Shown here one piece after another: positions 9,005 to 47,232 of a stretch of DNA of 64,000 bases. Each line of letters begins with the position of its first letter. The first letter of the stretch is position 1. Both the position numbers and the translations under genes were made by a program. The notes under the pieces were generated by a model that saw only the letters and a list, made by a program, of their open reading frames with translations, was not told where the DNA came from and searched no databases. This DNA comes from Chloroflexota bacterium. GTDB taxonomy: Bacteria; Chloroflexota; Anaerolineae; UBA2200. Location of the stretch: the NCBI GenBank assembly GCA_014360905.1, contig JACIWW010000012.1, positions 8,011 to 72,010 on the forward strand, read 5' to 3'.

Positions 9005-10789
9005 TTGAGCACGAGCAGCACTTCGGGCAAACCCATCATCGTGCAGAGCGACAAAACCGTGCTGTTGGAGGTGGACAACCCCCTCTACGAGGAAGCACGC
9101 GATCACTTGGCGCGCTTTGCCGAGCTGGAGAAAAGTCCTGAATACGTCCATACCTATCGCATCACCCCATTGTCACTGTGGAACGCAGCCGCGGCGGGCA
9201 TGACCGCCGACACCATCCTCGACGCATTGAATGCGTACAGCAAGTACCCCGTGCCCGACAATGTGCGCGTGGACATCGTGGACTATATCTCGCGCTATGG
9301 CCGTGTGCGGCTCATCCGCGAGGATACGAAGTTGTTCCTGGAATCGCACGATGCTGCTTTGATGACGGAGTTGGCTCGCCACAAGCGCCTCCAGCCTTAT
9401 ATCCTGAAGCAGGTCAACCCCTTCCGCCTCATGGTGGATCCTCTCCGTCGGGGTCACATTAAGCAGGCACTGGTCTGGATTGGCTACCCTGCCGAGGACC
9501 TGGCTGGCTATGTGGAGGGTGCGCCATTGCATTTCTCCCTGCGCCAGGTTACGCGCAGCGGAGAGCCTTTTGTCCTTCGCCCTTATCAACTGGACGCCGC
9601 AGGCGCCTTCTACGCTGGAGGGGGGCCACAAGGCGGCAGCGGGGTCATTGTGCTACCCTGTGGAGCAGGCAAGACCATGGTTGGCATGGCGGTAATGGAG
9701 AAACTGCAGTGCGCAACCCTCATCCTTACCACCAACACCGTTGCCGCGCGGCAGTGGATCAGCGAACTGCTGGACAAAACAGACCTGCCCGAAGATGCCA
9801 TAGGGGAGTACACAGGACTGCGCAAGCAGGTGCGCCCGGTGACCATCAGCACCTACCAAATCATGACCTACCACCCCCGGCAGCGAGTCAAGGGCAAGAA
9901 AACAGAGGACGAGTTCCCGCACTTTGCCCTGTTCAACGAGGAAGATTGGGGTCTGATCATCTACGACGAGGTGCACCTGCTGCCCGCACCGGTGTTTCGC
10001 ATCACAGCCGAAATCCAGGCACGGCGGCGCCTAGGACTGACCGCGACGCTTGTGCGCGAGGATGGACGCGAGACGGACGTCTTTTCGCTCATTGGCCCAA
10101 AGAAGTACGACGCCCCGTGGAAAGACCTGGAGCGCCAGGGCTGGATCGCCACCGCCGAGTGCCACGAAGTGCGCATCCCGCTCCCAGATGACCAGCGCCT
10201 GCTCTACGCGCTGGCCGATGACCGTGACAAGTACCGCGTGGCGGCAGAGAATCCGCGCAAATTGCTCGTTCTCGACCAGTTGCTATCCAAACATAAGGAT
10301 GACAGCGTACTCATCATCGGCATGTACCTGGAGCAACTGCAGGAGGTAGCCGATCGCTACGGCTATCCGTTGATCACAGGCAAGACCACTGTGCGCGAGC
10401 GAGAGAAACTGTACGACGCCTTCCGGCGGGGCGAGATCAAATGCCTGATTGTCTCCAAGGTGGGCAACTTTGCCATAGACCTGCCCGATGCCAACGTCGC
10501 CATTCAGATTTCCGGCACCTTTGGCTCGCGGCAGGAGGAAGCACAGCGTCTGGGGCGCATCCTGCGTCCCAAGCGCCATGGCCTGCTGGCTCACTTCTAC
10601 GCCTTGGTCACGCGCGATACGCGCGATCAGGACTATGCCGCCAAACGGCAACTGTTCTTGACCGAGCAGGGCTATCGCTATGAGATCCTCTACGAGGACG
10701 AAATACCGCAATGGCAACCAACCGTGCTCGCACTCCAGCCCCGTCCGGCACGTCCCAAAGCTCTGATGGCAGGCCCGGGAGGGAACTAG
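9005..10789 (+). CDS. xpb: XPB/ERCC3(Rad25)-type superfamily-2 DNA helicase
   Basis: Walker A GAGKT (LPCGAGKTMVG), DEVH box, motif III TATL. Helicase C-terminal domain. N-terminal XPB-like damage-recognition region. Probable TTG start at 9005. Confidence 0.85.
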   Translation: MSTSSTSGKPIIVQSDKTVLLEVDNPLYEEARDHLARFAELEKSPEYVHTYRITPLSLWNAAAAGMTADTILDALNAYSKYPVPDNVRVDIVDYISRYGRVRLIREDTKLFLESHDAALMTELARHKRLQPYILKQVNPFRLMVDPLRRGHIKQALVWIGYPAEDLAGYVEGAPLHFSLRQVTRSGEPFVLRPYQLDAAGAFYAGGGPQGGSGVIVLPCGAGKTMVGMAVMEKLQCATLILTTNTVAARQWISELLDKTDLPEDAIGEYTGLRKQVRPVTISTYQIMTYHPRQRVKGKKTEDEFPHFALFNEEDWGLIIYDEVHLLPAPVFRITAEIQARRRLGLTATLVREDGRETDVFSLIGPKKYDAPWKDLERQGWIATAECHEVRIPLPDDQRLLYALADDRDKYRVAAENPRKLLVLDQLLSKHKDDSVLIIGMYLEQLQEVADRYGYPLITGKTTVREREKLYDAFRRGEIKCLIVSKVGNFAIDLPDANVAIQISGTFGSRQEEAQRLGRILRPKRHGLLAHFYALVTRDTRDQDYAAKRQLFLTEQGYRYEILYEDEIPQWQPTVLALQPRPARPKALMAGPGGN

Positions 10790-10823
10790 ACCTGTCAGGT
10801 TTAGATAGAGAAGAAACAGCCAG

Positions 10824-13121: not shown

Positions 13122-13130
13122 GAGCAACGC

Positions 13131-15380
13131 ATGGCTCACATGCTCCACGAAATCTTGGATGGCTATCACTACGAGGCATTGGCACGCATCGCCGAGTTCA
13201 ACCACATTGACACGGTGGATGCGCAAGGGCATAAATTGCGCAAGCGCGAGTTGATTGAGGCACTTTGCAAGTGGCTTTTCACGCCGGAGCGCATCGCGCA
13301 GGTGCTGGCTGCCCTTCGCCCTCTGGAACGGGCTGTCCTGGATCGTTTGCTGCTGCACGGTGGCGAAGCGGACACAGTGTCCTTGCGCGAAGAACTGCAG
13401 CGCGAGGGCATTGTGCAAGCGCAGCCCCTTTCCAAAGGGTGGCAAAAGAGCAACATCAACGATCCCTATGCATGCAACGGGGATTATTTTGAGGATGTCA
13501 TCGCTCGTTTGACCTTACGCGGGCTAGTGTTCAGCAGCAACGCTGAGTTGCTGTGGCCGCTGAACGCCAAACTGGGCTTTGCTCCAGGGCAACGCCTGAT
13601 CGTGCCGAAACCCCTGCGCCAGTATTTGCCCCGTCCCGAATTGCCTTCGCTGGAGTGGGGCCGGGGTAGCCTGCCTGCTCCAGTAGAAGAGACCGACACA
13701 GCGCTCGCACAAAGGGAGTTGTTCCTCTATTGGAGCATCGTGCGCGCCAAACCGTTGCCTCTGACCCAGGCTGGATTGCTCCAAAAACGGGCGTTGCGCA
13801 GCATCAACGAGCAGTTGCTCTTTCCGAACCATGCGCTGGAAAGCGCGAATAACGAGAGCGAAGCGCCCCACCTCTACTTTCTGCGTATGCTGTTGCAGGA
13901 ACTGGGGCTGTTGCTCTGCGAACGGGAGCAAGTGCGTGCCTCCGGTGAGCCAAGCCAGGTGCCCGAATTCTGGGAAAAGCCCATCGAGGAACGCGTGCGC
14001 GCCTGTCTTGAGGCATGGCAGCGCTTGACCCAATGGAGCGAACTGACGCATCTGGGAGTGTCTGCTTTTGACATTGACTTGCCACGCGCACGCGGTCTCT
14101 TGCTGGAGCAACTGCGGCATGTGCCGGTTGAAACCTGGCTCTCTGCGGATCGCTTCCTAAGCCGCTTGGCCATCACTACGCCGCGGCTGCTCTTCAAGTC
14201 GCGGGAGTTGCCTGCCAGAGGACGTTACTACCAGGATGTCAATCACGAGATGGAGCAGGATCGCTGGTTTGCCAAGGTCGAAGCGGCGTTTGTCGGTGGG
14301 GCATTGAGCGGGCCATTGCACTGGCTGGGATTGGTGGACATCTCAGCGGACGGAAACCGCCTGCTGGCTTTTCGCGTGAATGCCAGTGGCGCACGCGTAT
14401 TGGGCATTGCCCCCAAAAAGGCAGCAGAGGCTCCACCAGCTGAGACCAAGGTGATCGTGCAGCCCAATTTCGAGGTCTTTGCCTTGGGGCCAGTCCCGGA
14501 GGTGATTCTGGCCAGATTGGAGATGTTTGCCGACCGCGTGAAGGTGGATCGCAGCGCCTTTGCCTATGTGCTCTCGCGCGAGACGGTCTATCGCGGGCAA
14601 AGGTATGGCCTGTCCGTGCCGCAGATTATCGCCTTCCTCGAGGAGCAAACGCATGCCCCATTGCCGCAGAACGTCCTGCGCACGCTGCAGGAATGGAGCG
14701 AGCAACACGAACGCATTATCTTTCACCACACGGTCGCGCTCTGCCAAACGGCCAACCCGGAAGCGCTCGATGCACTGTGGAACGACTCTGCCGTGCAGAC
14801 GCATCTGGAGCGGCGCCTGACGCCTACCGTAGCATTGGTGAAAAGGGGACGTGCGGTAGCCTTGCGCGAACTGCTCCTTCAGCGCGGAATGCTGCCCGCT
14901 TTGAGCACAGAGCAGGATTCCTGTCTTGGGCGCGTGCAGGCCACTCCCGAAGGGGAGTTGCGCCCTGTCCATGCCGGCCCTGACTTGCTGCTGGAGAAGT
15001 TGTTGCAGGATTTGGCGGAGCAGCGGGATGGACGTTTCTACGTGACCGAGTCATCAGTGACGCGGGCGCTGGCTTCTGGCATGAGCGTGCACGAGTATCT
15101 GAAGCGCTTGGCCGCTCTGCAGCATGGGCCACTGCCGGCACAATTGCAACGGCGCATCAAGGCTTGGGGTCGCTACTATGGCAAAGCGGCGTTGCAAAAG
15201 ACAGTGCTATTAGAGGTGAAGGATGCCGCTACAGCGGAAGAACTGCTCGCCGATGAGGAACTGGCGCCGCTTTTGTCGCGCTTTGCCGCCGACACACGTG
15301 GATGCCTGTTGGAAGTGCGCACCGAAAATCTGGAGCACTTGCACCGTCTGCTGCGCGAGCGCGGGATAGAGGTAGCATAA
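13131..15380 (+). CDS. Large hypothetical protein, paralogue of the SWIM protein without the zinc finger
   Basis: 749 aa. Starts 10 nt after the previous stop. Shares an N-terminal helical segment and the GPLHWLGLVDIS...RLLAFR motif with the upstream gene. Confidence 0.5.
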   Translation: MAHMLHEILDGYHYEALARIAEFNHIDTVDAQGHKLRKRELIEALCKWLFTPERIAQVLAALRPLERAVLDRLLLHGGEADTVSLREELQREGIVQAQPLSKGWQKSNINDPYACNGDYFEDVIARLTLRGLVFSSNAELLWPLNAKLGFAPGQRLIVPKPLRQYLPRPELPSLEWGRGSLPAPVEETDTALAQRELFLYWSIVRAKPLPLTQAGLLQKRALRSINEQLLFPNHALESANNESEAPHLYFLRMLLQELGLLLCEREQVRASGEPSQVPEFWEKPIEERVRACLEAWQRLTQWSELTHLGVSAFDIDLPRARGLLLEQLRHVPVETWLSADRFLSRLAITTPRLLFKSRELPARGRYYQDVNHEMEQDRWFAKVEAAFVGGALSGPLHWLGLVDISADGNRLLAFRVNASGARVLGIAPKKAAEAPPAETKVIVQPNFEVFALGPVPEVILARLEMFADRVKVDRSAFAYVLSRETVYRGQRYGLSVPQIIAFLEEQTHAPLPQNVLRTLQEWSEQHERIIFHHTVALCQTANPEALDALWNDSAVQTHLERRLTPTVALVKRGRAVALRELLLQRGMLPALSTEQDSCLGRVQATPEGELRPVHAGPDLLLEKLLQDLAEQRDGRFYVTESSVTRALASGMSVHEYLKRLAALQHGPLPAQLQRRIKAWGRYYGKAALQKTVLLEVKDAATAEELLADEELAPLLSRFAADTRGCLLEVRTENLEHLHRLLRERGIEVA

Positions 15381-15613: not shown

Positions 15614-15642
15614 TTGACAAATCAATCGAAATGTGCTATAAT
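15614..15642 (+). promoter_or_regulatory. Consensus sigma70-type promoter TTGACA-N17-TATAAT, followed by a ~380-nt leader before the AOR operon
   Basis: TTGACA at 15614-15619 and TATAAT at 15637-15642, spacer exactly 17 nt. No ORF lies between it and 16028. Confidence 0.55.
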
Positions 15643-16027
15643 TATCTTGCAAATTCAAAAATCATAGTGCAACCGAGTTCGCGCTGAGCGCGCCTGAGGC
15701 ATTCTCCTGACAGTGTACCTGGGAGATGGCTTAAGAGAAGTGCTGTGTCGTAGGGGTCACAGCCTCCGACCTGTCTCCTCCCCCTGGGAGGAACGGGCGT
15801 TAGGGTACGGGGAGCAATTCCTGTGCCTGCCGTGTTTGCGAAGGAGGCGAATTCCAATCGAGTTAGCGATTGGCTATTTGCCTCCTTCTTGAATTTTATG
15901 GAGGGAATTGGGCAGCGTTTGCAGATTCACACTCAGAGAGGAGGTGGTGTGCAGGCAGTAGAACCCTTTGGACGTCCGTACGTAGACGCTACATTTCTTG
16001 ATCAATTTGGAGGAGGAGAGGAAAGAA

Positions 16028-16891
16028 ATGTCACAAAAGATGCAGGACAGAATTTCGGAACTGCAGGAGCAATTGCGGCAGGGCGTGATCAGCCGACGTG
16101 AATTCTTGCGCTATGTGACGTTGCTGGGTGTGTCGCTGGGAGCGGCGGAGGCTTTGGCTGCCTGCGCGCCCAAGCCCACACCGACCGTGGCGCCGCCTAC
16201 AGTGGCACCACCAACGGCACCACCGCCTACAACGGCACCACCACCGCCCACAGTTGCCCCCACGGCTCCACCGCCCGCAGCCGAGAAGCAAGCTTTGGCT
16301 GGGCACATGCTGCGCTTTAACCCCGCCATCTGCACCGGCTGCCTCATCTGCGCGGTAGCCTGCGCTGACAAGTGGGCCACGGAGTACTTCCCGGAGGAAG
16401 CCGCCAAGGGTGTCAACCTGGAATTCTCCCGCATTCGCCCCATGCGCTCGCAGTACGTGGATATCATCAACGTCTGCCAGGACTGCCGCCTGATTGAGTG
16501 GGCGGAAGGCTCAACTAAAGCGCCGTGCGAGCAGGTTTGCCCACAGGGAGCGATTTCAGTGGTGCCCGAAGGGCAGGGCAAGCCCGGCTACACCGGCATG
16601 GGCTACCTGAACGTAGACCGCGACCTGTGCCTTGGCCTTGATCTCTGCGGGCGCTGTCTGGAGGTCTGCGAGGACCAGTTCGGCAGCGGCATCTCCTTTG
16701 ACCCCATCGAGAAGAAGGCGCAAATCTGCACGCGTTGCGGCGGGTTGCCCACCTGCGTCGAGGTCTGCCCAGAGCCTGGCGCGCTGCTGTTCGTACCGTT
16801 GCAGACCAACGGCCGCTATTGGGCACAAACGCCAGAAGAGTACTTTGAACTTACCTATGCCAAGTTGTTCGCGGAGAGGAGGGACGTATAA
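16028..16891 (+). CDS. TAT-exported lipoprotein-type poly-[4Fe-4S] ferredoxin subunit with Pro/Thr-rich linker. Likely electron-transfer partner of the AOR.
   Basis: RBS GGAGGAGGAGAGG before ATG 16028. Twin-arginine SRREFLRY. Lipobox LAACAP. PTVAPP repeats. At least 4 Cys clusters (CTGCLICAVAC, CQDC...C, CLGLDLCGRCLEVC, CTRCGGLPTCVEVCP). Confidence 0.7.
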   Translation: MSQKMQDRISELQEQLRQGVISRREFLRYVTLLGVSLGAAEALAACAPKPTPTVAPPTVAPPTAPPPTTAPPPPTVAPTAPPPAAEKQALAGHMLRFNPAICTGCLICAVACADKWATEYFPEEAAKGVNLEFSRIRPMRSQYVDIINVCQDCRLIEWAEGSTKAPCEQVCPQGAISVVPEGQGKPGYTGMGYLNVDRDLCLGLDLCGRCLEVCEDQFGSGISFDPIEKKAQICTRCGGLPTCVEVCPEPGALLFVPLQTNGRYWAQTPEEYFELTYAKLFAERRDV

Positions 16892-18930
16892 TGGCCGAGT
16901 TAAAGGGTGCTACAGGAAAGATCGCACGTGTGGATCTGACCACAAAGAAAGTAACAGTCGTCGAGCCGCCAGTTGATGTATACAAGAAATTCCTCGGCGG
17001 CGAGGCGCTCGGGCTCTACTTTATGGTCGCGGAAGGCCTTATTGACCCCAAGGTGGAGCCGTTCAGCCCACAGAACATGGTGCAGTTCATGATCGGGCCG
17101 GTGACCGGCATAGGGCCCAATGCTCGGTCCGTGATCGTCACCAAGAGCGCGTACAACTTTATGACCGTCACGACGTCGGGTGGCCGCGCAGCGGCAGAAC
17201 TCAAGTTTGCTGGCTGGGACGGCATCCAGGTTGTGGGTAAGTCGGACAAGCCCGTCTACATCGCGGTGGTAGACGACAACATCGAGATCCGCGATGCCAG
17301 CCATATCTGGGGCATGGGCACCGAAGAGGCGGAATTGGAACTGCTCAAGTCGGTGCTAGCGCCCAACGAGTGGCGTGAGAGTATCCTCACCGACCGGGAT
17401 CTAACTCCAGAGTGGGCAGCGCTGCGCCCGGTCAAGCGCAAGGGCATCGGCGCCAAACGGCTGGCGGCGGCCTGGGTCATCGGCCCCGGCGGCGAAAACG
17501 GCGTCTGGTACGCCAACGTCATCACCGAGGGTGCGCGCGCCCATGGCCGCTACGGCGCTGGGGCGATTGTTGGCTCCAAGAATCTGAAGGGCATCGTCAT
17601 CCGCGGCACCAAGGGACACATGCTGGCTGACAAAGGCAAGTTCCTGCAACTGGCCAAAGAGATTCAGGCTTCCGAAGCCACCAACTACTTCTGGCGCTCC
17701 TTCGGCACAGCCGGCATCGGCGCCCGCTGCGCGAACGCTGAGGATGCCTTCCCCATCCGCAACTGGCAGTGGGGCGCCTGGGCGGATCCGATGGTTGTCA
17801 AAGCACTGGAAGGGCCGTGGATGGATGCCGCTAGCTTTGTCAAGCAGATGGCCTGCCCTGGCTGCACCTTGCACTGCATGTACCTCACTGAAATCACCAG
17901 CAAGGACCCGCTCATGGACGGCGTCATCACCGACATGCCCGACTGGGAGGCCATGGGCATGGTTGGCGGCAACCTGGGTTACTGCGAACTGGAAGGCACC
18001 ACGCCCAGCGATCAGTGGAAGGGTGACCACTGGGATTTGATGGAAGCCCTCGCCAAGACCCAGTATACCACCTTCCTCCATGACAACAATGGACTCGACT
18101 ACATCGAGGGTGGCGCGCTGCTGGCTATGCTGATGGAGCTCATCCAGCGCAACCTCATCACCCCAGCCGATCTGGATGGCATCAACCTCAAATGGGGCGA
18201 TGTCCATGCCGTGGATGCCATTATCAAGAAGATCGCGCACAAGGAAGGCATCGGCGCTGTGCTGGCCAAGGGCACCTACGAGACGGCCAAGTACTTTGCC
18301 GAAAAGAAGGGCAAGCCGGAGATCATGAATTACTCCATGACTGGCCATCGCTATACCCAGCCCGCGCACGACGTCCGCGGCTTTGACAAGGACGCTCTGG
18401 AGTACGTGACGGTGGAGCGGCCCTGCGAACACACCGGAGGCGGCGGCGCCGGGTTCATGAAGAAGGACTATCCCGCCGCCATTGCCGGGCAGAATACCCA
18501 GGCCACGCACAACTCCTTGGTCATATGCTCTTTCGCTGCTGGCAACTGGGCGGGCAAGATCGCGGCCATGGTGCAGGCAGCCACCGGCTGGACCGACTTT
18601 ACTGAGGACGACGTACCCAAGGTCGGCGCCCGCGCCTATGCCCTGGCCAGGATCTTTAACCTCACGACGCAAGGGATCAAGGACCCGAAGAAAGAATGGG
18701 ATAACCTTAACCTCTTCCCGCCTCGCTGGTTCTACGATCCACTGCCCACTGGCATCGGCAAGGGGCGTGTGGCGTACGAGGGCAAGCCAGAGGTGTTATT
18801 CAATGAAGCCCTGCCCGCTTACTGGAAGACCAGAGGCTGGAGCGAGGACAAGGGCGTGCCTCTCGCCGACACGCTCAAAGCCCTTGGCATTGACGACATC
18901 GCCGAACCGTACGCCGCCAAACTGCGCTAG
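16891..18930 (+). CDS. aor: Aldehyde:ferredoxin oxidoreductase family (tungsten/molybdopterin AOR)
   Basis: 679 aa. AOR N-terminal domain (MAELKGATGKIARVDLTTKKV...GGEALGLYF) and AOR C-terminal domains. RBS GGAGAGGAGGG. Overlaps the upstream stop by 1 nt. Confidence 0.9.
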   Translation: MAELKGATGKIARVDLTTKKVTVVEPPVDVYKKFLGGEALGLYFMVAEGLIDPKVEPFSPQNMVQFMIGPVTGIGPNARSVIVTKSAYNFMTVTTSGGRAAAELKFAGWDGIQVVGKSDKPVYIAVVDDNIEIRDASHIWGMGTEEAELELLKSVLAPNEWRESILTDRDLTPEWAALRPVKRKGIGAKRLAAAWVIGPGGENGVWYANVITEGARAHGRYGAGAIVGSKNLKGIVIRGTKGHMLADKGKFLQLAKEIQASEATNYFWRSFGTAGIGARCANAEDAFPIRNWQWGAWADPMVVKALEGPWMDAASFVKQMACPGCTLHCMYLTEITSKDPLMDGVITDMPDWEAMGMVGGNLGYCELEGTTPSDQWKGDHWDLMEALAKTQYTTFLHDNNGLDYIEGGALLAMLMELIQRNLITPADLDGINLKWGDVHAVDAIIKKIAHKEGIGAVLAKGTYETAKYFAEKKGKPEIMNYSMTGHRYTQPAHDVRGFDKDALEYVTVERPCEHTGGGGAGFMKKDYPAAIAGQNTQATHNSLVICSFAAGNWAGKIAAMVQAATGWTDFTEDDVPKVGARAYALARIFNLTTQGIKDPKKEWDNLNLFPPRWFYDPLPTGIGKGRVAYEGKPEVLFNEALPAYWKTRGWSEDKGVPLADTLKALGIDDIAEPYAAKLR

Positions 18931-18957
18931 GTCTGGCTAGTCCCGAGGAAGCACATG

Positions 18958-19002
18958 AGGGCCCCAACCTGTGTACTCCATCGGGTTGGGGCCCTTTGCG
19001 TA
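18958..19002 (+). terminator. Rho-independent terminator after aor
   Basis: GGGCCCCAACC-loop-GGTTGGGGCCC followed by TTTGCGT. Confidence 0.6.
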
Positions 19003-19018
19003 TGTGGTTGTGCGCCGT

Positions 19019-19115
19019 CAACGAATGGGGACACGAATAAACGAATAGCATGTTGTAGTTAGATCCGTCTGTTGCCTGATTCGTTGATGGCCCATTTGTC
19101 ATGCTGAGGCCAGCT
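19019..19115. repeat. Iterated-hexamer hairpin element (ACGAAT x3 ... ATTCGT), second repeat family
   Basis: TCAACGAATGGGGACACGAATAAACGAAT...ATTCGTTGATGG. Related copy at 41003-41080. Confidence 0.6.
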
Positions 19116-19214
19116 GAAGCATCTGACGCAGCCAAACGGTCTCACATAACTCGCGAGGAAAAATCGCAGGCCGGCGTGGGCGACAGTCCATAACTTTAAT
19201 ATGAAACTGCAGGT

Positions 19215-20141
19215 GTGATAATGCAAGAACAAAGGACGTGGAATTATAATGAATTCTTCTACCGCAATTATGGCATCTTCACGGAAGAGGAACAGCGCCG
19301 CATCAGGGATGCCAGAGTAGTAGTTGCTGGCTGTGGCGGTATCGGCGGGGTACTTGCGGTCGCTCTGGCACGCATGGGTATCAGCCACTTGGTGCTTATG
19401 GACCCTGAAAGCTACGAACCTTCGAACATGAACCGGCAGATTGCCTGTTTTTGCGAGAACATTGGCAAGAACAAGGCGCGTTGTATCGAAGAGCAGATAC
19501 GTTGCATTAATCCAGAGGCTGATGTTACGGTCTATGAGCGCGCCTTGGTATACGATGAAATCGAAGAGATTGCCAAACTGGGCGATGTCATCGCCCCGGC
19601 GATGGATGAATGGCCACTAAGCTTGATGGCGCTGGAAATCATTCGCAAATCCAAGCCCGCCGTGATGGCTTATCCCGTGGGCGCATTGGGACGCGTCTCC
19701 GTCTTCACTGCGGACAGCCCCACCGTGGCCGAATGCTTGGTGATGCCCTATGGATTTGGCTATCATGAATTGCAGGAGTATACTACGCGCCCGGACGCGC
19801 GGTGGCTTCTCTTGTATTATGTTACAGAAGGTCAGTGGAGGGAGGACTGGTTCGCGCAATGGGTGGAGGGCAAGCTCCCGCATGCCCAGATTTGTCCCAT
19901 TGTCTGGATTACCGGGACATTGGCGGCGCTGGAAATCATCAAACTGGTTAGTGGTAAATGGAAACCTGTTATTTCTCCCTATTATTGGTATATTACGCCG
20001 TCGCGAGCGCGTATCCGAAAGTTCGGGCTGAGGCGCAAATTGGCTTCGCGGCTATCGCGGCACAAGGCGCTGAGGGAACAGATGATCCGCTTGGCGCGCT
20101 CGAAAGCATTTGTACGCTTTTTCACACGTCTGATTGACTAG
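19215..20141 (+). CDS. ThiF/MoeB/HesA-family E1-like adenylyltransferase
   Basis: Rossmann GxGxxG motif VVVAGCGGIGGVLAVALARMGI. Typical ThiF-family core. GTG at 19215 or ATG at 19221. Confidence 0.7.
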   Translation: MIMQEQRTWNYNEFFYRNYGIFTEEEQRRIRDARVVVAGCGGIGGVLAVALARMGISHLVLMDPESYEPSNMNRQIACFCENIGKNKARCIEEQIRCINPEADVTVYERALVYDEIEEIAKLGDVIAPAMDEWPLSLMALEIIRKSKPAVMAYPVGALGRVSVFTADSPTVAECLVMPYGFGYHELQEYTTRPDARWLLLYYVTEGQWREDWFAQWVEGKLPHAQICPIVWITGTLAALEIIKLVSGKWKPVISPYYWYITPSRARIRKFGLRRKLASRLSRHKALREQMIRLARSKAFVRFFTRLID

Positions 20142-20158
20142 ATCGCAAGGAGTGACGG

Positions 20159-20662
20159 ATGAAACGATGGCTCTCCTTCCCCAATCTTCTGGCTCTCGTG
20201 GCAGTGGTTCTCATGGTCATGGGCATTACCCGCCCTTGGTGGAGCCTGACCTTGTTTGGCAATGAAAGCGATATTTATGTTTATCAGATCGTGGGCCCGC
20301 TCCGTGAACTCTTGGGCTACAAACGCAGTCCGCAGATGCTCCTTCTGACCAGGGTATTGATTGGCGCCGTGGTTCTGGTTGCATTGGGCAGTGTATTGCG
20401 CGGCTGGCCTGGACGGATCCTGATTGCCCTCGGAGGCATTGCTATCCTGCTGGGGGTCTCGCGCTTCCTGGGCAGAATTGCTGAGGTCGCGGAGGGGTTC
20501 AATGTGCCCATCCAGGGCCATGGCATTGGTGACTATGGTGGTTTTGCCAAAGTGGAAGTGAGCACTCGGCTGCGCACAGGGCTGTACCTGACAAGAGCGG
20601 GTGGTATAGTAGCCTTGCTAGCCAGCTTGCTGCACAGTATCATGCAACCGCGCCGGAAGTGA
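20159..20662 (+). CDS. Small integral membrane protein (4 predicted TM helices), unknown function
   Basis: RBS GGAGTGACGG. Hydrophobic segments. Confidence 0.5.
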   Translation: MKRWLSFPNLLALVAVVLMVMGITRPWWSLTLFGNESDIYVYQIVGPLRELLGYKRSPQMLLLTRVLIGAVVLVALGSVLRGWPGRILIALGGIAILLGVSRFLGRIAEVAEGFNVPIQGHGIGDYGGFAKVEVSTRLRTGLYLTRAGGIVALLASLLHSIMQPRRK

Positions 20663-20769
20663 AGATGGGTTTGAGGCTACCAGCCCTGGGCGGAGTGTGG
20701 TCGGCGCAAAGCCAATGGGAGCGCTGTGGTGCAACTCAAAACGACATATCGGAGATAACAGGATAGATT

Positions 20770-22218
20770 ATGCTTCATGAGATCAACCAATTGTTGGCTG
20801 AATGGCGGCAGGGCCGGCTCAGCCGACGTAGCTTTATCCGCTACGCTACGCTTTTGGGCTTGTCTTTGGGAGCAGCCGAAGCACTGGCTGCTTGCGCACC
20901 TTCTCCAACGCCTACAGCGGCCCCTACTCCTGTCCCTACACCTACAGCCACATTCATACCTAGTCAGATCGCCGGTGAAGACGCCGAGGTGCCAACCCCC
21001 GAATGGGTGCCAACACCCCTACCGCCCATGACGCCTACGCCGACCATTACCTGGCCCAAGCCAACTCCCACGCCGGTGATGTGGGAACCAGCCATGTGGG
21101 CTTGCCCTTCTTGTACAGAGCGCTTCTCCACGCAGGAGGAGCTCGTCAAGCACATCCTGGCGAAGCATGCACGCAAGATTCCCGGAGCCCGGCGCGTGGA
21201 CCAACCCACCTATGCCCGTTTCCTGACTGACCAGGTGGCGCGCTTTGACCAGCGCAATACCGTCTTCTCGCGTGTGATGTGGGATAAGGATTACCAGGAA
21301 CAGATTAGCAAAGTAACGTTGCGGCCAAGGCGCGAGACAGTGGAGGAAATGATCAAGGGCAGAGCGCTAGTCGCTGGTGCCATTTATGCGGACGACGTCG
21401 CCGGCAGCCTGGCGCCCAATTACCGCGGCTACAGTGGCCATGTGCACGGATATGGCGGGCTGTATGGGTGGGACGACCCAGTGAGTGCGGAACGCCTACC
21501 CGTGACCGACAAAGCAGAGATGTCGGAGCATATCAAGACCGTGGCACGCTTTTACGGCGCCGACCTGGTGGGGATTTGCGCAATCAACCCGCTATGGGTA
21601 TACTCGCATTACTATGACCGCGAAACCGGCGAATATGGAGAACTGGAAATCCCGTACAAATATGCCATTGTGATGGGGCTGGAGATGGACTTTGCCTGCA
21701 TCAATCAGTCCCCTGGCTTTGAAGCCAGTGCGGCAACGGCGCTGATTTATTCGAAGATGGCGGAAGTAACGGCCAAGCTAGCCAAGTACATCCGTGCTTT
21801 GGGTTACGAAGCGGTGCCCTCTGGAAATGACACGATGCAGAATATTCCACTAGCCATTGATGCCGGCTTGGGCGAAATCGGCCGGCTAGGCTTGCTACTC
21901 ACGCCCGAATTCGGACCACGGCAACGCCTCTGCAAGGTGCTGACAAACTTGCCGCTGGCAACAGACAAACCCATTGACTTTGGCATGCAGCGCTTTTGCG
22001 AGATGTGTCTTTTCTGTGCCCATGCCTGCCCCGCGAAGGCCATCCCCTTTGGCGAGCGTTCGCTGGAGCGGACTTCCATCTCCAACCGGCCAGGCATTTT
22101 GCGCTGGACGGTGAACGTGGGCAACTGCTACCTGTTCTGGCGTGCCAATGGCGGCACAGATTGCTCGAACTGCGTCGCAGCATGCCCATGGGGCCAGCAG
22201 AATCGTCCCTGGCTCTAG
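20770..22218 (+). CDS. TAT-exported RdhA/QueG-superfamily Fe-S (corrinoid-type) reductase, reductive-dehalogenase-like. N-terminal twin-arginine lipoprotein signal, Pro/Thr linker and a C2H2-type zinc-finger motif.
   Basis: Twin-arginine SRRSFIRY. Lipobox LAACAP. Finger CPSCTERFSTQEELVKHILAKH (C-x2-C-x12-H-x4-H). Family motifs RFYGADLVGI and AGLGEIGRLGLLLTPEFGPRQRL. Fe-S motifs FCEMCLFCAHACP (C-x2-C-x2-C-x3-CP) and C-x12-CSNCVAACP. Confidence 0.6.
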   Translation: MLHEINQLLAEWRQGRLSRRSFIRYATLLGLSLGAAEALAACAPSPTPTAAPTPVPTPTATFIPSQIAGEDAEVPTPEWVPTPLPPMTPTPTITWPKPTPTPVMWEPAMWACPSCTERFSTQEELVKHILAKHARKIPGARRVDQPTYARFLTDQVARFDQRNTVFSRVMWDKDYQEQISKVTLRPRRETVEEMIKGRALVAGAIYADDVAGSLAPNYRGYSGHVHGYGGLYGWDDPVSAERLPVTDKAEMSEHIKTVARFYGADLVGICAINPLWVYSHYYDRETGEYGELEIPYKYAIVMGLEMDFACINQSPGFEASAATALIYSKMAEVTAKLAKYIRALGYEAVPSGNDTMQNIPLAIDAGLGEIGRLGLLLTPEFGPRQRLCKVLTNLPLATDKPIDFGMQRFCEMCLFCAHACPAKAIPFGERSLERTSISNRPGILRWTVNVGNCYLFWRANGGTDCSNCVAACPWGQQNRPWL

Positions 22219-22294
22219 TCTGTACCCCAACTGCTTTGCTACAAGTCAATATCTTGAACACGACTATTTACATTGACAAGGAGGAACAAAGAGC

Positions 22295-22774
22295 ATGTTC
22301 GATGTGAACAAAGTGGATGCCATCATCGAGAAGCATGGAGCGGAACAGCGTGCTCTGACTGCTATGCTGCAGGACATCCAGGGCGAGTACAACTATTTGC
22401 CTCGTGAAGCTTTGGAGCATCTAGCGCAGAAGATGAAGTTACCTCTGATACAGGTGTATCAAGTCGCCAGGTTCTACAGAGCTTTCAGCCTGGAGCCGCG
22501 CGGCAAGCATTCCATCACGGTCTGCTTGGGTACTGCCTGCCACGTACGTGGCGGCGTTGCTGTCGCAGACCAGGTGGGGCGCTTGCTCGGCATAAAGCCG
22601 GGGGAAACGACCAAGGACAGGCGCTTCTCCTTTGACACCGTCAATTGCCTGGGCTGCTGCGCCCTGGGCCCCGTGATGGTTGTGGATGGCCAGTACTATG
22701 GCAAGATGGCTGCCAGCAAGGTGGAGCGCGTGCTCGCTAAATACTCGGGAGAGGAGGTTGCTACCAATGCCTAG
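22295..22774 (+). CDS. NuoE/HoxE/HndA-like [2Fe-2S] thioredoxin-fold subunit of an NADH-dependent oxidoreductase
   Basis: Cys motifs C-x4-C...C-x3-C (VCLGTACHV...NCLGCCALGP). RBS AAGGAGGAA. Confidence 0.85.
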   Translation: MFDVNKVDAIIEKHGAEQRALTAMLQDIQGEYNYLPREALEHLAQKMKLPLIQVYQVARFYRAFSLEPRGKHSITVCLGTACHVRGGVAVADQVGRLLGIKPGETTKDRRFSFDTVNCLGCCALGPVMVVDGQYYGKMAASKVERVLAKYSGEEVATNA

Positions 22775-24620
22775 GCTAACATCACGAGCCGAGTTCGAAG
22801 CGTGGCGCCAGTCCATACTTGCGAGCTGGGATCCAAGCAAACCCTGTATTACCGTATGCGGAGGAACAGGCTGTAGCGCCTTGGGTGCGAAAGAAGTCAC
22901 TGCCGCTCTGGGGCGTGAACTGAAAAAGCAAGGCTTACAGGACAAGGTAGATCTCAAGATGACTGGCTGCCATGGCTTCTGTGAACGAGGGCCTTTGGTC
23001 GTCGTCTACCCCCAGCATATCTTTTACCAGAGCGTGACGGCGGATGATGTCCCCGACATCGTCTCTGAGACGCTCATCAAAGGAAACCCCCTCGAGCGCA
23101 AGCTGTACAAAGATCTGGTGACCGGAGAGCCAATCGTCTATGAACCGGATGTCCCTTTCTACCGCGAACAACACCGCATTTTGATGAAGTACAATGGCCT
23201 GATTATCCCTACCAGGATTCAGGACTATATTGCCATCGGTGGGTATCAGGCGTTGTGCAAAGCTCTTTTCGAGATGAGCCCAGAGCAGGTGATTGAGGAA
23301 ATCAAGCGCTCTGGTCTGCGTGGCCGCGGTGGCGCTGGCTTTCCCACGGGTCGCAAGTGGGAAGAATGCCGCCGCGCTGATGGAGATATCAAGTATGTCA
23401 TCTGCAATGCCGACGAGGGCGACCCAGGTGCCTATCAAGACCGTAGCTTGGTCGAAGGCAACCCGCACAGCATCCTGGAGGGCATCATCATCGGCGCGTA
23501 CGCTGTTGGCGCTCACGAAGGCTTTATCTATATCCGTCATGAATACCCTCTGGCGGTCGAACACATCACCCGTGCCGCAGAGCAGGCTGAAGAGTACGGG
23601 CTGCTGGGGAAGAATATCCTTGGCTCAGGTTTCGATTTCACCTTCAAGGTGCATCGCGGGGCAGGCGCCTTCGTTTGTGGCGAGTCCAGTGCTCTGATGC
23701 GCTCCATCGAAGGCTATGCTGGCGAGCCGCGCGCGAAGCGCATTCATGCCACCGAAAAAGGGCTATGGGAGCGCCCCACCGTGCTGAACAACGTCAAGAC
23801 GTGGGCTTCGGTACCCCACATCATCAACAATGGCGCGGATTGGTTCGCTCAAATGGGCACGGAGACGAGCAAAGGGACGATGGTCTTTTCGCTAGTGGGC
23901 AAGGTCAACAACACCGGCCTGGTGGAGGTGCCCATGGGCGCGACTCTGCGCCATCTCGTGTACGACATTGGCGGTGGCATTTCCAGCGGCAAGAGATGTA
24001 AAGCTGTACAGACTGGCGGGCCATCAGGCGGTTGCATCCCGGAGCGCTTGCTCGACCTGCCCGTGGACTATGAAGCGCTGACCGAAGCCGGTTCCATCAT
24101 GGGTTCCGGTGGCCTCATCGTCATGGATGAGGACACTTGCATGGTGGACGTAGCGCGCTACTTCCTGCACTTTACCATGGAGGAATCCTGTGGCAAGTGT
24201 ACTGCCTGCCGCGAAGGAAGCCGACGCATGTACGAAATCCTGGAACGCATCGTGCATGGAAAGGGTCAGGAAGGAGACATTGAACGGTTGCAAGAAATTG
24301 GCACCACGATGATCAATGGCTCACTCTGTGCGTTAGGCCGCATGGCTCCGAACCCGGTTCTGAGCACCATCCGCTATTTCCGGGAGGAATACGAGGCCCA
24401 TATCCGCGACAAGCGCTGCCCAGCGGCGGTCTGCAAGGACCTGATCACCTATTCCATCATCGCCGAGAACTGCACCGGCTGTGGCGTTTGCCTACGCAAT
24501 TGCCCGCAAGGCGCCATCACTGGTGAAAAGAAACAGGTCCATCACATTGACCCAAGCAAGTGCATCCGTTGTGGCATCTGCCGCGAAGTCTGCAGATTCG
24601 ATGCGATCAAGGTAGAATAG
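22767..24620 (+). CDS. NuoF/HoxF/HndC-like NADH-binding FMN/[4Fe-4S] subunit with N-terminal 2Fe-2S domain and C-terminal 2x[4Fe-4S] ferredoxin domain
   Basis: RBS GAGGAGG before ATG 22767 (overlaps upstream gene end). FMN/NADH motifs GRGGAGFPTGRKW. SLBB domain. C-terminal CTGCGVCLRNCP and CIRCGICREVC. Confidence 0.85.
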   Translation: MPRLTSRAEFEAWRQSILASWDPSKPCITVCGGTGCSALGAKEVTAALGRELKKQGLQDKVDLKMTGCHGFCERGPLVVVYPQHIFYQSVTADDVPDIVSETLIKGNPLERKLYKDLVTGEPIVYEPDVPFYREQHRILMKYNGLIIPTRIQDYIAIGGYQALCKALFEMSPEQVIEEIKRSGLRGRGGAGFPTGRKWEECRRADGDIKYVICNADEGDPGAYQDRSLVEGNPHSILEGIIIGAYAVGAHEGFIYIRHEYPLAVEHITRAAEQAEEYGLLGKNILGSGFDFTFKVHRGAGAFVCGESSALMRSIEGYAGEPRAKRIHATEKGLWERPTVLNNVKTWASVPHIINNGADWFAQMGTETSKGTMVFSLVGKVNNTGLVEVPMGATLRHLVYDIGGGISSGKRCKAVQTGGPSGGCIPERLLDLPVDYEALTEAGSIMGSGGLIVMDEDTCMVDVARYFLHFTMEESCGKCTACREGSRRMYEILERIVHGKGQEGDIERLQEIGTTMINGSLCALGRMAPNPVLSTIRYFREEYEAHIRDKRCPAAVCKDLITYSIIAENCTGCGVCLRNCPQGAITGEKKQVHHIDPSKCIRCGICREVCRFDAIKVE

Positions 24621-24632
24621 AGGAGACAACAC

Positions 24633-26627
24633 ATGGTAGAACTCACTATTGATGGACAAAAAGTACAGGTTGAAGAAGGAACAACCATACTAGAAGCGGC
24701 GCGCAAGGTGGGCATCGAAATCCCCACCCTTTGCAGCCATCCCGACCTCAAGCCGTATGGCGCTTGCCGCGTTTGTGTCGTTGAGGTCAACCGCAAAGGA
24801 CGCTCTGTGGTCAGCACTTCCTGTGATTACCCGGTGGAAGAGGGGATGGAGGTCAAGACCAATTCCCCCGAAGCTGTCCGTACGCGCAAGATGATGATTG
24901 ACCTCTTGCTCTCGCGCGCTCCCAACGTGCGGCCATTACAGCTTCTGGCGAAGCAGTATGGCATCGAGAAGGCCAGCTTTCCCACGGATCATCCGGAGGA
25001 AGATTGCATCCTCTGTGGGCTCTGTGTGCGTGCGTGCGACGAAGTTGCGCAGAAGAACGTGATTGGCCTTGTGGATCGCAGCCAAAAGCGCCAAGTGAGC
25101 ACGCCTTTTGGTCAGCCCTCTCCAGAATGTGCCACCTGTGGCAAGTGTATCCCCTATTGTCCGACCGGCGCCATTGCCCATGTGCCCGGCATCGTGGTCA
25201 AGGGCGTGGGCGGGCTGTGGGTACGGCTGCGCCAAGTGGTGCAGTTGGGACTGTTGGCGCTGTTCCTGTACCTCGTGTGGAACACCACCAGAAAGGGAGT
25301 AGAGTCGCTGCCAATCAACCTCTTCAGCCGCTTCGATCCACTGATGGCGCTTGTCTCCATGCTGGGCTCCAAGCGCTTGATTGCCAATATGATCCCCGGC
25401 CTGGTCACCATCGTTGTCACGCTTTTGCTCGGCAGGGTCTGGTGCGGTTGGATCTGCCCTCTGGGGACGGTGCTGAACCTGTATGGTCCCAACAAAAACC
25501 CGCGCATCCCTGACAAACTGCGCCAGGTCAAATATTTCCTGCTCTTTGCCTTCATCGCCGCGGCATTGCTGGGCAGCCTGGCTCTGATGTGGTTAGATCC
25601 CATCACAATTTTTGTCCGTCCATTGGCTGGAGCGGTCTTTCCGGCCATTCTGCAGAAGCAAGCACCCGTGGCTGTTCCCAAGGGACTGGCTGCTGCGCGC
25701 GTAGCGGAGATTCCTTTGCGCCCTGTGGTGCATCCATTGCTGGCAGTGCCTTTGGTGATCGTGCTTGCCCTGAACTTGTTCGCCAAGCGTTTCTGGTGTC
25801 GCTACCTTTGCCCTCTGGGCGCGTGGGTAGCCTTCCTGTCCAAATTCTCCTGGATCAAGCGCTACATAGACAAGAAGATCTGTCTGGAATGGGGACGCTG
25901 CATCCCAGTCTGCCCTATGGATACCATTGCCTATGAGGATCTGAGCAGCGATCCTGGAGAATGCCTGATGTGCCTAGACTGCCTTGGCGTCTGTCCGTCT
26001 GGCGCTACCAAGTTTGGCCCGCAGCCGAAGCCTGGTTTCGGCTACAGTTATGATCCCTCACGCCGGCAGGTGCTGGCCTCGCTGGTGGTTGGTTTAGGTG
26101 GAGCAGCACTGCTCAAGACCGATATGCTCAAGAGCAAGAACCCCTACCAACTCCGACCACCGGGAGCGAAGGAGGAAGAGTTCCTGACCAAGTGTATTCG
26201 CTGTGGCCAGTGTGTCAAGGTCTGTCCGAACAATGCTCTGCATCTAGCCTTGTTTGAGGCTGGGCTGGAATCCATCTGGTCGCCGTTGCTTATCCCGCGC
26301 ATCGGCAACTGTGACTATGACTGCAATGCTTGCGGACAAGTCTGCCCGACCCAAGCCATTCCCAAACTGCCACTGGAAGAGAAACGCAAAGCCAAGATTG
26401 GCACAGCCGTGGTGGATTTCGACAAGTGCATCCGCTGTCTGCTCTGTGTTACGAGGTGTCCCGTGGAGGGGGCATTGGTACAGGGCGCAGTCGAAGGCCG
26501 CAAGGGCAAGTACCCCATCGTCAACCCAGACCTATGCATTGGCTGCGGCACTTGCGAGTTCGTCTGCCCGGTAGAAGGCGAATCAGCAATCCGCGTGCAG
26601 GCTGTAGGCACTGTCCCGCGTACCTAA
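24633..26627 (+). CDS. Fusion protein: NuoG/HydA N-terminal [2Fe-2S]+[4Fe-4S] module :: NapH/MauN-like integral-membrane polyferredoxin (CxxxCP TM motifs) :: C-terminal 4x[4Fe-4S] ferredoxin domains
   Basis: N-terminus [34 protein letters not shown]...C-x-x-C is NuoG-like. TM segments with CGWICPLG and CRYLCPLG are NapH-like. C-terminal clusters [33 protein letters not shown] and [12 protein letters not shown]. Confidence 0.6.
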
Positions 26628-26637
26628 TACGTACAAC

Positions 26638-26680
26638 CTCCCGCTGGTCAGAAACCTACGGGAGGTTGCTTTCTATTGTC
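26638..26680 (+). terminator. Rho-independent terminator
   Basis: CAACCTCCCG-loop-CGGGAGGTTG followed by CTTTCTATTGT. Confidence 0.55.
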
Positions 26681-26767
26681 AGCAAAGCAATTTGGTGGTA
26701 TAATAAAGTAGTAACGCAGCCAACTCATTCCCCATGTCATGAGGTGGTGAGGCTGAGAAAAGGAGGG

Positions 26768-26944
26768 ATGATGCCTCGTCTTGGCGTACCAGAACTGCTG
26801 ATCATACTCGTGATTGTGATCTTAATCTTTGGTGTGGGCAGGCTGACAGAACTCGGCGCTGCCCTGGGTAGAGCAATCCGCGAGTTCCGCGAGGCAACGA
26901 AGCCAGAGGATGATAAGAAGGAAGCAAGAGGGAATAAGCAGTGA
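26768..26944 (+). CDS. tatA: Twin-arginine translocase TatA/E-family protein
   Basis: RBS AAGGAGGG. Sequence [43 protein letters not shown] (TM helix plus amphipathic helix). Embedded in the track ORF 26330..26944. Confidence 0.8.
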
Positions 26945-27348
26945 ATCTTTTTAATATCGGTCCCATGGAATTGCTCTTCATTCTGATCTTGGCTTTGCTT
27001 ATCTTTGGTCCACGCCGTTTGCCACAGATAGCAAGGGACATTGGCAGGGCCATCGCGGAGTTCAGGAAGGCTTCCGAGGAACTGACTACGGAGCTGCGCA
27101 AGGAAATAGAGAGCACCGAGGCCGCGCTGGAAGAAGCCCAGAAAGAAGTCGCGGAATCTGCAAAGGCGGCTTTAGAGGGAACGACTCCGACGAAAGAGAC
27201 GCCTGCTCCACCACAACAGGGCAGGGAGGCAGCAGAGACTACCGTACCTTCCCTAGAGGAGTCCGCAGCAGAAACAAGCCTACCGGAAGAGTCCCCCGCA
27301 TCGTCGGAGCAGGGTGAGGACAAATCACCCGATGAATTGCTCGGCTGA
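26941..27348 (+). CDS. Second TatA/TatB-family protein (longer acidic C-terminal tail)
   Basis: [47 protein letters not shown] start overlaps the tatA stop. Confidence 0.7.
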
Positions 27349-47219: not shown

Positions 47220-47232
47220 GGAGGCCACGACT

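Follow-up and report, generated by a model that had tools for sequence, protein, structure and literature searches.

WorABCSL (Wor-Bfu), an aldehyde oxidoreductase that contains tungsten and bifurcates electrons, has so far been described in Synergistetes and Firmicutes only, and only in soluble form (PMC9304861), and its structure has revealed that the small subunit WorS is recruited by a zinc finger and a helix at the C-terminus of WorA (PNAS 2025, PMC12318220). A signal for twin-arginine translocation (Tat) on a WorS-type subunit (Class V) has been reported only in clade 41, with no Chloroflexota, NapH or dehalogenase (PMC13328260). NapH-like proteins, in turn, have been proposed to serve as modular transmembrane conduits (PMC8238504), and for a family of NapH::NapG polyferredoxins it has been established experimentally that transmembrane (TM) helices 1-4 are inserted by the Sec system and TM5, together with the C-terminal domain, by the Tat system (Tooke et al. 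2017, PMC5449189); homologues of this dual Sec/Tat protein in Chloroflexi were noted in the same work. Here we describe a gene cluster in which these elements stand next to the gene of a reductive-dehalogenase homologue (RdhA). It is found in a stretch of 64,000 nt (hereinafter, the window) from a Chloroflexota bacterium (UBA2200), namely positions 8,011-72,010 of the forward strand of contig JACIWW010000012.1 (assembly GCA_014360905.1), and, as argued below, it probably encodes a membrane-spanning variant of WorABCSL joined to an external reductive dehalogenase.

Protein families were assigned with Pfam and NCBIfam/TIGR models at their curated cut-offs, and RNAs with Rfam covariance models; structural comparisons were made by sequence and profile searches of proteins in the Protein Data Bank (PDB) and, for the fusion protein described below, with an AlphaFold (AF2) model and Foldseek. 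Relatives' loci compared for gene neighbourhood carry L-numbers, and those with a full-length fusion of BfuA to the NapH-NapG part (BfuA::NapHG) are called class-1 loci.

All five subunit types of WorABCSL are present in the cluster, as judged from the matches of WorL, WorS, BfuC, BfuB and the BfuA domain (Table 1). Among the cytoplasmic components, BfuB reaches 770-797 bits with the B subunits of the bifurcating enzymes HydABC(SL), WorABCSL and NfnABC, as compared to about 385 bits with NuoF of complex I, and carries extra domains, namely an N-terminal thioredoxin-like 2Fe-2S domain and a C-terminal one with two [4Fe-4S] clusters. The family matches underlying the preliminary description of this DNA, which spoke of NuoE-like and NuoF-like subunits, hold, but a derivation from complex I or from a Hox diaphorase can be rejected, given the doubled scores of the bifurcating-type matches and the presence of the extra Fe-S domains. 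The best PDB match of the BfuA domain by sequence is WorA (9mqx_A, E=2e-42), and the same chain is the top Foldseek match of the model of the whole fusion (44% identity); there is no cysteine between residues 65 and 124 of the fusion, so that the site of the A3 cluster is absent, as it is in WorA. The WorS-docking C-terminus of WorA is also missing, and NapH-NapG is found in its place, with the chain running from residue ~183 straight into TM1. In class-1 loci, bfuC is always paired with bfuB. The set that had been described as NuoE, NuoF and a truncated NuoG is, by these sequence criteria, a BfuABC electron-bifurcation core, with bifurcation itself a predicted property.

The catalytic half of the putative enzyme is encoded upstream. 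WorL matches the aldehyde oxidoreductase (AOR) of P. furiosus (1aor, E=8e-76) and WorL of A. mobile (9mqx_D, E=4e-71), and retains the CxxCxxxC motif and the fourth cysteine as cluster ligands, along with aligned Glu and His residues at what we take to be the active-site positions of P. furiosus AOR. A BamB-type (benzoyl-CoA reductase) assignment was considered and dropped, as BamB matches at only 3e-34 versus 8e-76 for AOR, and the cluster is without Hdr-like genes. The closest solved relatives of WorL are thus P. furiosus AOR and A. mobile WorL, assigned to clade 87 (PMC12318220). At 16891 the two genes overlap, the worS stop codon running into the start of worL. WorS begins with ISRREFLRYVTLLGVSLGAAEALAAC, a Tat signal with a lipobox, followed by a Pro/Thr linker, and its RR pair is invariant in 10 homologues. 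A phmmer search of the PDB with WorS gave no match, and its relatives surfaced with a profile only, the best being AorA (8c0z_C, 2e-13), the S subunit of WOR5 (6x6u_B) and WorS (9mqx_E, 1e-11). No signal peptide is seen in WorL, which is presumably co-exported with WorS.

The RdhA encoded between these two halves had been described as a Tat-exported, lipoprotein-type enzyme of the RdhA/QueG superfamily, and the description can be narrowed down: TIGR02486 places it with RdhA, whereas the QueG model TIGR00276 reaches only 42.7 bits versus a cut-off of 200, QueG structures match only at ~1e-5 to 1e-6, and the protein has a Tat motif (SRRSF) and a lipobox (LAAC), which together exclude a grouping with QueG. 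The Pfam Dehalogenase model gives 19 bits, below its cut-off of 24.3. Against Sulfurospirillum PceA (4uqu, E=9e-55) the identity is ~50% over residues 297-478, the cobalamin/Fe-S core, and Y327, N353 and R386 align with the catalytic Tyr, Asn and Arg of PceA, presumably its residues Y246, N272 and R305. In 26 RdhA orthologues, R19, F22, W110-C112-C115-H128, Y327, N353, R386 and the eight cysteines of the two C-terminal Fe-S motifs are invariant, and conservation reaches at least 90% for R20, for H133 and for the Cys of the lipobox. By sequence, then, this is a genuine RdhA-family protein targeted to the Tat system, and dehalogenation is its predicted activity. There is no open reading frame (ORF) of RdhB size with 2-3 TM helices beside rdhA; the lipobox is present instead.

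A C2H2 zinc-finger-like motif is found in all RdhA orthologues between a Pro/Thr linker and the catalytic domain (20770-21170 in the window). Being outside the PceA-aligned region, it appears to be absent from RdhAs of the PceA type and, by analogy with the zinc finger by which WorA docks WorS, it could be a docking element. In the more distant relatives, a gene for a small monohaem (CxxCH) cytochrome c lipoprotein, absent from the window, lies directly 5' of rdhA (L008:183-464, L013:6076-6372, L015:5880-6176 and L017:5876-6175). One orthologue (L088:9001-10140, 71% identity) is encoded apart from WorSL and NapHG in an ars-like island, together with an ArsR-type HTH_5 protein, an ArsP_1 permease, a low-molecular-weight phosphatase/ArsC-type protein, thioredoxins and DsbD_TM; its N-terminus may have been mis-called, as there is a gap of 450 nt upstream.

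The Tat signals of WorS and RdhA (16028-16180 and 20770-20900) resemble each other over a long n-region, …ELQEQLRQGxISRR(E/S)F(L/I)RY…, followed by an h-region and the lipobox, and the same form of signal recurs in many RdhA orthologues and in WorS of L084 and L089. At the DNA level the two signals of the window are only ~70% identical and differ by synonymous changes. Therefore, a recent gene conversion between near-identical signals can be discarded, and the likeness is maintained by selection. The shared n-region may point to a dedicated Tat proofreading chaperone, although none was identified.

Table 1. Genes, protein domains and regulatory elements of the redox cluster (positions in the window)
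Feature	Position	Strand	Basis and remarks
Sigma-70-type promoter-like site	15614..15642	+	TTGACA-17-TATAAT, TG extension, 12/12 matches; consensus match only
Moco/Tuco riboswitch aptamer (RF01055), P3-lacking	15752..15862	+	46.6 bits vs gathering score of 36; full-length model match
worS, polyferredoxin small subunit, predicted Tat-exported lipoprotein	15998..16891	+	Fer4 domains; more probable start codon, ATG at 16028
worL, AOR/WOR-family tungstopterin catalytic subunit	16891..18930	+	AFOR_N and AFOR_C domains
ThiF/MoeB-like adenylyltransferase	19215..20141	+	PF00899; same position in at least 9 loci
4-TM membrane protein, conserved	20159..20662	+	Hydropathy
rdhA, reductive-dehalogenase homologue, 482 aa	20770..22218	+	TIGR02486, 200.6 bits vs cut-off of 160.35
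bfuC, NuoE/HoxE-like [2Fe-2S] subunit	22295..22774	+	PF01257, 166 bits
bfuB, NuoF-like FMN/NADH subunit	22767..24620	+	Complex1_51K, SLBB, NADH_4Fe-4S
Fusion protein BfuA::NapH::NapG, 664 aa	24633..26627	+	Residues 1-183 NuoG/HoxU-like, 196-461 NapH-like, 475-655 NapG-like
BfuA/WorA-like domain of fusion (residues 1-183)	24633..25181	+	[2Fe-2S] and two [4Fe-4S]
NapH-like membrane domain	25209..26015	+	Fer4_5 x2, TIGR02163; four TM helices, two CX3CP, two cytoplasmic [4Fe-4S] motifs
Internal twin-arginine signal-anchor, forms TM5	26055..26123	+	RR before TM5
NapG-like polyferredoxin domain	26145..26597	+	NF007012, TIGR00397; LRPPGA, four [4Fe-4S] motifs
Second promoter-like site, upstream of tat genes	26676..26704	+	11/12 matches, TG extension; consensus match only
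tatA	26768..26944	+	PF02416; TIGR01411 above cut-off
tatA/tatB-like gene	26941..27348	+	TIGR01410 (tatB) 58.4 bits vs cut-off of 56.5; PF02416

The two halves could be connected across the membrane by the rest of the fusion protein. The fusion of a NuoG-like part to a NapH-like one with four further ferredoxin domains, which had been recognized in the preliminary description, turns out to be a NapH::NapG protein with five TM helices and an internal twin-arginine anchor. Both the NapH motifs WCGWxCPLG and WCRYLCPLG and the cysteines of all four NapG-domain [4Fe-4S] motifs are invariant; the NCBIfam equivalog cut-offs are not reached (115 vs 213 for NapH, 107 vs 269 for NapG), and no nap genes are found within the window. 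Since a simple hydropathy threshold missed TM1 and TM5, the helices were taken from the AF2 secondary structure and the alignment: the model of the fusion has a pLDDT of 81, with helices at 193-221, 251-266, 295-312 and 368-380 (pLDDT mostly 75-93), whereas a separate model of the NapH-NapG part reached a pLDDT of only 45 and was set aside. Around the twin-arginine pair, P475 and R478 are invariant in alignments of 13 and 89 sequences, and R477 is invariant in the former and at least 90% conserved in the latter; the weakly hydrophobic TM5 is followed by Lys residues and then by the NapG-type LRPPGA motif. Taken together with the experiments of Tooke et al. on Sec and Tat insertion, the conserved RR pair and the weak TM5 suggest that the BfuA domain and the NapH clusters are cytoplasmic and that the NapG-like domain, the sidedness of which the preliminary description had left to topology prediction, faces outside. 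WorS and RdhA, judging from their Tat signals, are external too. The anatomy of the predicted complex, that is, which parts lie outside, which in the cytoplasm and which cross the membrane, can thus largely be read from the protein sequences.

How far does the cluster extend? The plus-strand block at 15614-27348 runs worS, worL, the thiF-like gene, the gene of a protein with four TM helices (4-TM), rdhA, bfuC, bfuB and bfuA::napH-napG, and then the tat genes; given the consensus promoter, the riboswitch and the short gaps between the genes, it is probably one operon under a riboswitch of the tungsten-cofactor type. The promoter-like site at its head is the best one between 15300 and 28500. The riboswitch, which starts 110 nt downstream of this site and so lies between it and worS, has its P3 hairpin deleted in the Rfam alignment, and Moco-type RNAs that lack P3 correlate with tungsten cofactor use (Regulski et al. 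2008, PMC2408646). The same riboswitch precedes worS/worL in L089, L087 and L007; in more distant relatives, a histidine kinase and a LuxR-type regulator are found in its place. The six co-directional plus-strand genes from rdhA to the second tat gene, as delimited in the preliminary description with their coordinates and RdhA motifs, were all recovered and are conserved, but that delimitation stopped 5 kb short, worS and worL being apparently part of the same operon. In relatives of the fusion protein, the conserved block likewise starts upstream: genes for an Fe-S protein and for a member of the AOR family (AFOR_N/AFOR_C) come first, and those for ThiF, a membrane protein of ~167 aa, RdhA, NuoE, NuoF and the fusion follow. 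This arrangement is kept in at least 12 independent Chloroflexota contigs at 45-88% identity, so that conservation as a unit, which had been suggested as a check, is indeed observed; the fusion protein has many homologues, and those with a named source are almost all from Chloroflexota, mainly Anaerolineae/Anaerolineales. As previously stated, there are no hydrogenase or formate dehydrogenase (FDH) genes near the cluster, nor any Nuo membrane-arm or Q-module genes within ~15 kb on either side. The possibility that a hydrogenase or FDH catalytic subunit is encoded just outside has nevertheless materialized in a modified form, with WorS and WorL upstream in its stead.

Of the remaining members of the block, the ThiF/MoeB-like protein probably serves maturation of the pterin cofactor. 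The 4-TM protein has no family match in Pfam or NCBIfam; its PWW and GY..R motifs are invariant in an alignment of 10 homologues, its gene is always located between thiF or worL and rdhA, and it is a candidate membrane partner or anchor. As to the tat genes, which had been taken for two TatA proteins, the first is indeed tatA, the second is TatA/B-like and passes the tatB cut-off; they have a promoter-like site of their own and lie next to the cluster only in close relatives, tatA adjoining it only in the window, L089, L004 and L091.

The comparison of loci separates a conserved core from an exchangeable part. Full-length BfuA::NapHG is always accompanied by BfuC and BfuB, and WorS and WorL are found in every such locus with enough upstream sequence. 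In L010 and L012, Tat-WorS and WorL directly precede bfuC, bfuB and the fusion, without RdhA; in L007, WorSL directly precedes Bfu-NapHG, and the RdhA orthologue is encoded 7 kb away, beside a second AOR. Conversely, the close relatives L087 and L091 (60-65% identity in NapHG) have the order WorS, WorL, membrane protein, RdhA and NapHG without any Bfu gene, and L091 shares the genes downstream of the cluster in the window. Finally, L084 and P0018 have the same cluster with an NADPH domain of the NfnB/GltD type inserted into NapHG. Because the core persists both in the relatives without Bfu and in those with an NADPH module, WorSL, RdhA and NapHG are, as far as gene content tells, the conserved core, and the cytoplasmic pyridine-nucleotide module is exchangeable. 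The idea of an NADH-fed transmembrane conduit, put forward in the preliminary description, remains plausible in this light, as the NADPH swap in L084 supports a cytoplasmic module that feeds or drains the conduit; what had been missed is the co-encoded, exported tungsten oxidoreductase WorSL, a partner of the type already known for such a module.

Three further observations concern the wider family. In 54 loci among L018-L083, mostly from Chloroflexota, a short NapH::NapG (~490 aa) is almost always preceded by a DUF362 protein with a Tat signal (e.g., L018:8916-9989), which, from its gene position and signal, is a second, as yet uncharacterised exported partner of this conduit family. At L090:19-10515, a short NapH::NapG, 69% identical to that of the window, is followed by genes resembling those of Mrp/Mbh-type group-4 [NiFe]-hydrogenases (MbhD, Oxidored_q2, three Proton_antipo_M, Oxidored_q6 and 30kDa/49kDa/NiFeSe), the upstream side being cut at the contig end. 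Downstream of the RdhA-less WorSL-Bfu-NapHG genes, two rhodanese-domain lipoproteins flank a MoaA gene (L010:12009-15469 and L012:12048-15319), an arrangement that might indicate a role in sulfur chemistry or in the sulfuration of a cofactor.

The operation of such a membrane-spanning variant of WorABCSL can be envisaged as a single Fe-S relay: electrons would move between the Bfu flavin site, the BfuA domain, the cytoplasmic clusters of NapH, the NapH helices, the NapG clusters and WorS, and from there to WorL and RdhA, so that cytoplasmic NAD(H) and ferredoxin would be linked to an extracytoplasmic Fe-S pool. WorSL would feed this pool by oxidizing aldehydes (about -580 mV), and the reduction of organohalides by RdhA would drain it. 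If aldehyde were the only substrate, NAD+ and ferredoxin in the cytoplasm would receive the electrons, as they do in WorABCSL, and this inward transfer would be electrogenic; in the presence of an organohalide, the electrons of the aldehyde could reach the cobalamin of RdhA with no need for the quinone pool. An alternative supply of RdhA, possible because Bfu cores are reversible, would be confurcation of NADH and reduced ferredoxin, at about -400 mV, by the Bfu core run in reverse. The NapH helices might be crossed via a bound quinone or via clusters at the CX3CP motifs. We favour such a hub with both electron directions, in which WorSL would be the low-potential donor and RdhA the high-potential acceptor. 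That the Bfu core in fact works across the membrane in both these modes, with external tungsten-dependent aldehyde oxidation driving electrogenic reduction of NAD+ and ferredoxin and, in reverse, NADH and reduced ferredoxin (~-400 mV) feeding the exported RdhA through NapH::NapG without quinones, is a tentative proposal, possible rather than probable at present.

Several points weigh against the interpretation as a whole. The relatives without Bfu show that the core works without NADH, so that the NADH/ferredoxin link may be peripheral; the orthologue in the ars-like island has no WorSL at its side, and the RdhA substrate is only predicted; and worL is separated from the thiF-like gene by a gap of 285 nt. 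No cofactor is evident for the passage of electrons through the NapH helices, and structure searches found no solved NapH-type structure. The preference for tungsten over molybdenum is suggested only by the family membership and the type of the riboswitch, and, more generally, what the enzymes catalyse, which metals they contain, whether they form a complex and which way electrons flow are matters of inference. Outward flow to RdhA would, furthermore, consume membrane potential, so that energy-conserving "respiration" is not implied.

An unlikely alternative is that NapH-NapG acts as a (mena)quinol dehydrogenase for the exported enzymes, with Bfu reducing quinone at the cytoplasmic face and the general quinone pool as the intermediary. 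NapGH is, after all, a characterised quinol dehydrogenase (PMC5449189), and an NapGH-like pair has been proposed to feed PceA in Sulfurospirillum (PMC4585668); a quinone would also account for L087 and L091, which lack a cytoplasmic donor module, and for helices without an evident cofactor site. However, the direct fusion of either the BfuA or the NADPH domain to NapH suggests that electrons enter or leave via the cytoplasmic clusters of NapH. Menaquinol, at about -75 mV, would be a poor donor for cob(II)/cob(I), and, on general grounds, it could neither take electrons from a system at the potentials of Bfu nor pass electrons to it unless much energy were lost.

Still less likely appears the scenario in which the RdhA homologue reduces some other extracellular substrate, perhaps one related to the aldehydes or acids that the WOR acts on, or in which WorL itself is a reductase, both enzymes being sinks for cytoplasmic reducing power. 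Such a scenario would be in line with an orthologue group without a known substrate, with the unusual invariant zinc-finger-like motif and the lack of rdhB, with the linkage of RdhA to WorL even at the second site of L007, and with the orthologue in the ars-like island. Yet the Tyr, Asn and Arg of PceA are invariant, the cobalamin/Fe-S core is ~50% identical, and the NCBIfam model of RdhA is passed. As for WorL, characterised WORs of the clade-87 type oxidise aldehydes in vivo, and the reduction of acids at -580 mV would be unfavourable from NADH and ferredoxin.

The view of the preliminary description, that the NuoEF(G')-NapH/NapG module is dedicated to sending NADH electrons outward to RdhA, which would leave the AOR genes upstream as unrelated neighbours, is equally improbable: rdhA does lie directly 5' of nuoE in the window and most relatives, RdhA is genuine and Tat-exported, and in L084 an NADPH module takes the place of NuoEF in the same context, but the module is of the Bfu type and, among solved structures, its BfuA domain matches WorA best, WorSL is encoded upstream wherever the locus is long enough, following the same riboswitch and promoter, L010, L012 and L007 join WorSL to Bfu-NapHG with no RdhA between them, and L087 and L091 keep RdhA and NapHG without an NAD(P)H module.

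The surroundings of the cluster can be described briefly. Upstream of it, on the plus strand, three consecutive large Helicase_C_3 genes occupy 9005-15380, namely one for an XPB/ERCC3-type helicase (9005-10789) and two for proteins of 765 and 749 aa; they are missing upstream of the operon in L089, which sets the left boundary of the redox operon, to which the helicase genes are unrelated. At 54091-63983, there is a very large CRISPR-like array with a 37-nt repeat (GTTGCAGACACTCGATCCGAGGATAGGATACTGAAAG), a period of ~74 nt and ~130 or more units, which runs off the end of the window and explains the drop in GC content and the strong purine skew of the 54-64 kb region; Rfam found no rRNA in this low-GC region, so an rRNA reading was rejected. 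Upstream of the array are a WYL/WCX regulator (41700-42707) and, at 42850-53788, a number of large ORFs without an assigned function that could be cas genes. At the opposite end, the minus strand has a stop-free frame of 1162 codons (2-3487) that runs off the window start and in which an internal Met is followed by hydrophobic residues resembling a signal peptide (MKRLIVLFIIFALLLVASLLVG); the plus-strand ORFs called there have no Pfam matches and are probably spurious.

Proteins of the NapH/NosR/RdhC type are widespread, and for the question of whether and how they pass electrons across the membrane the fusion described here offers a self-contained test system: the cytoplasmic face of NapH is covalently joined to an NADH/ferredoxin module (to an NADPH module in a relative) and its outer face to NapG. 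The supply of low-potential electrons to the cobalamin of RdhA is a standing problem as well, for which an aldehyde oxidase at ~-580 mV and a Bfu core at ~-400 mV would be plausible sources. The cluster also extends the Bfu and WOR families by a membrane-spanning form that is frequent among the Anaerolineae living in digesters, sediments and groundwater, which suggests that abundant, supposedly "fermentative" Chloroflexota may dehalogenate compounds and detoxify aldehydes outside the cell. If the proposal is true, no bifurcating complex of such a kind would have been seen to span the membrane before, and the cluster would provide direct evidence for NapH-type proteins as true transmembrane electron conduits as well as a new route of organohalide reduction, driven by NADH/ferredoxin or by aldehydes, in Anaerolineae.

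It remains to place the cluster among the systems that resemble it. In Dehalococcoides, RdhAB-OmeAB-HupXSL is a proposed quinone-independent complex in which an external pterin protein, a polyferredoxin and RdhA are wired by Fe-S clusters. There, a hydrogenase on the outside provides the input and the pterin protein belongs to the dimethyl sulfoxide reductase type, whereas the pterin enzyme of the window is of the AOR type, with a cytoplasmic Bfu core across the membrane. The literature searched (RdhA with NuoF/NapH or with AOR, and Anaerolineae) contained no description of BfuA::NapHG, of an exported clade-87-like WorSL with RdhA, or of a zinc-finger RdhA, nor of the cluster as such; to this extent the architecture is new, as had been surmised, but for Sulfurospirillum an earlier proposal connects an exported RdhA to a NapGH-like module (PMC4585668), and a brief mention in the Wor-Bfu literature, not described further there, may refer to the system of the window.

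The Class V WORs, such as E. coli YdhYVWXUT of clade 41 (PMC13328260), are similar in that the Tat signal is on the small Fe-S subunit of an external, membrane-associated WOR; their partners, however, are cytochrome or other membrane subunits, whereas those in the window are BfuABC and NapHG, and WorL is nearest to solved enzymes of the AOR/WOR1 type. The organohalide respiration region of Sulfurospirillum multivorans (PMC4585668), with PceA/PceB, has in common with the window an RdhA that is exported by Tat and has two Fe-S clusters plus the catalytic triad, as well as an adjacent NapGH-type module; unlike it, the window is without rdhB and has a lipoprotein anchor and the zinc-finger-like motif in RdhA, its NapH/NapG is fused to Bfu, and a tungsten oxidoreductase is co-encoded. 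With the NapH::NapG polyferredoxin ("PFD") of delta proteobacterium MLMS-1 (PMC5449189), the fusion protein shares a four-helix membrane part with two CX3CP motifs and, on the cytoplasmic side, two [4Fe-4S] clusters, the RR pair before a weak TM5 and an external four-cluster domain, but it occurs without nap genes, has an N-terminal BfuA domain and has WorSL and RdhA as partners. The closest counterpart is WorABCSL of Acetomicrobium mobile (9MQX; PMC12318220; PMC9304861), a "Class IV" WOR with the same five subunit types, the same extra clusters in BfuB and the same A3-less BfuA. Whereas that enzyme is soluble and cytoplasmic, WorS of the window has a Tat signal and a lipobox; where WorA ends in a zinc finger and an adaptor helix that docks WorS, the window has NapH-NapG; and, in Chloroflexota rather than in Synergistetes or Firmicutes, an RdhA gene has its place inside the cluster.

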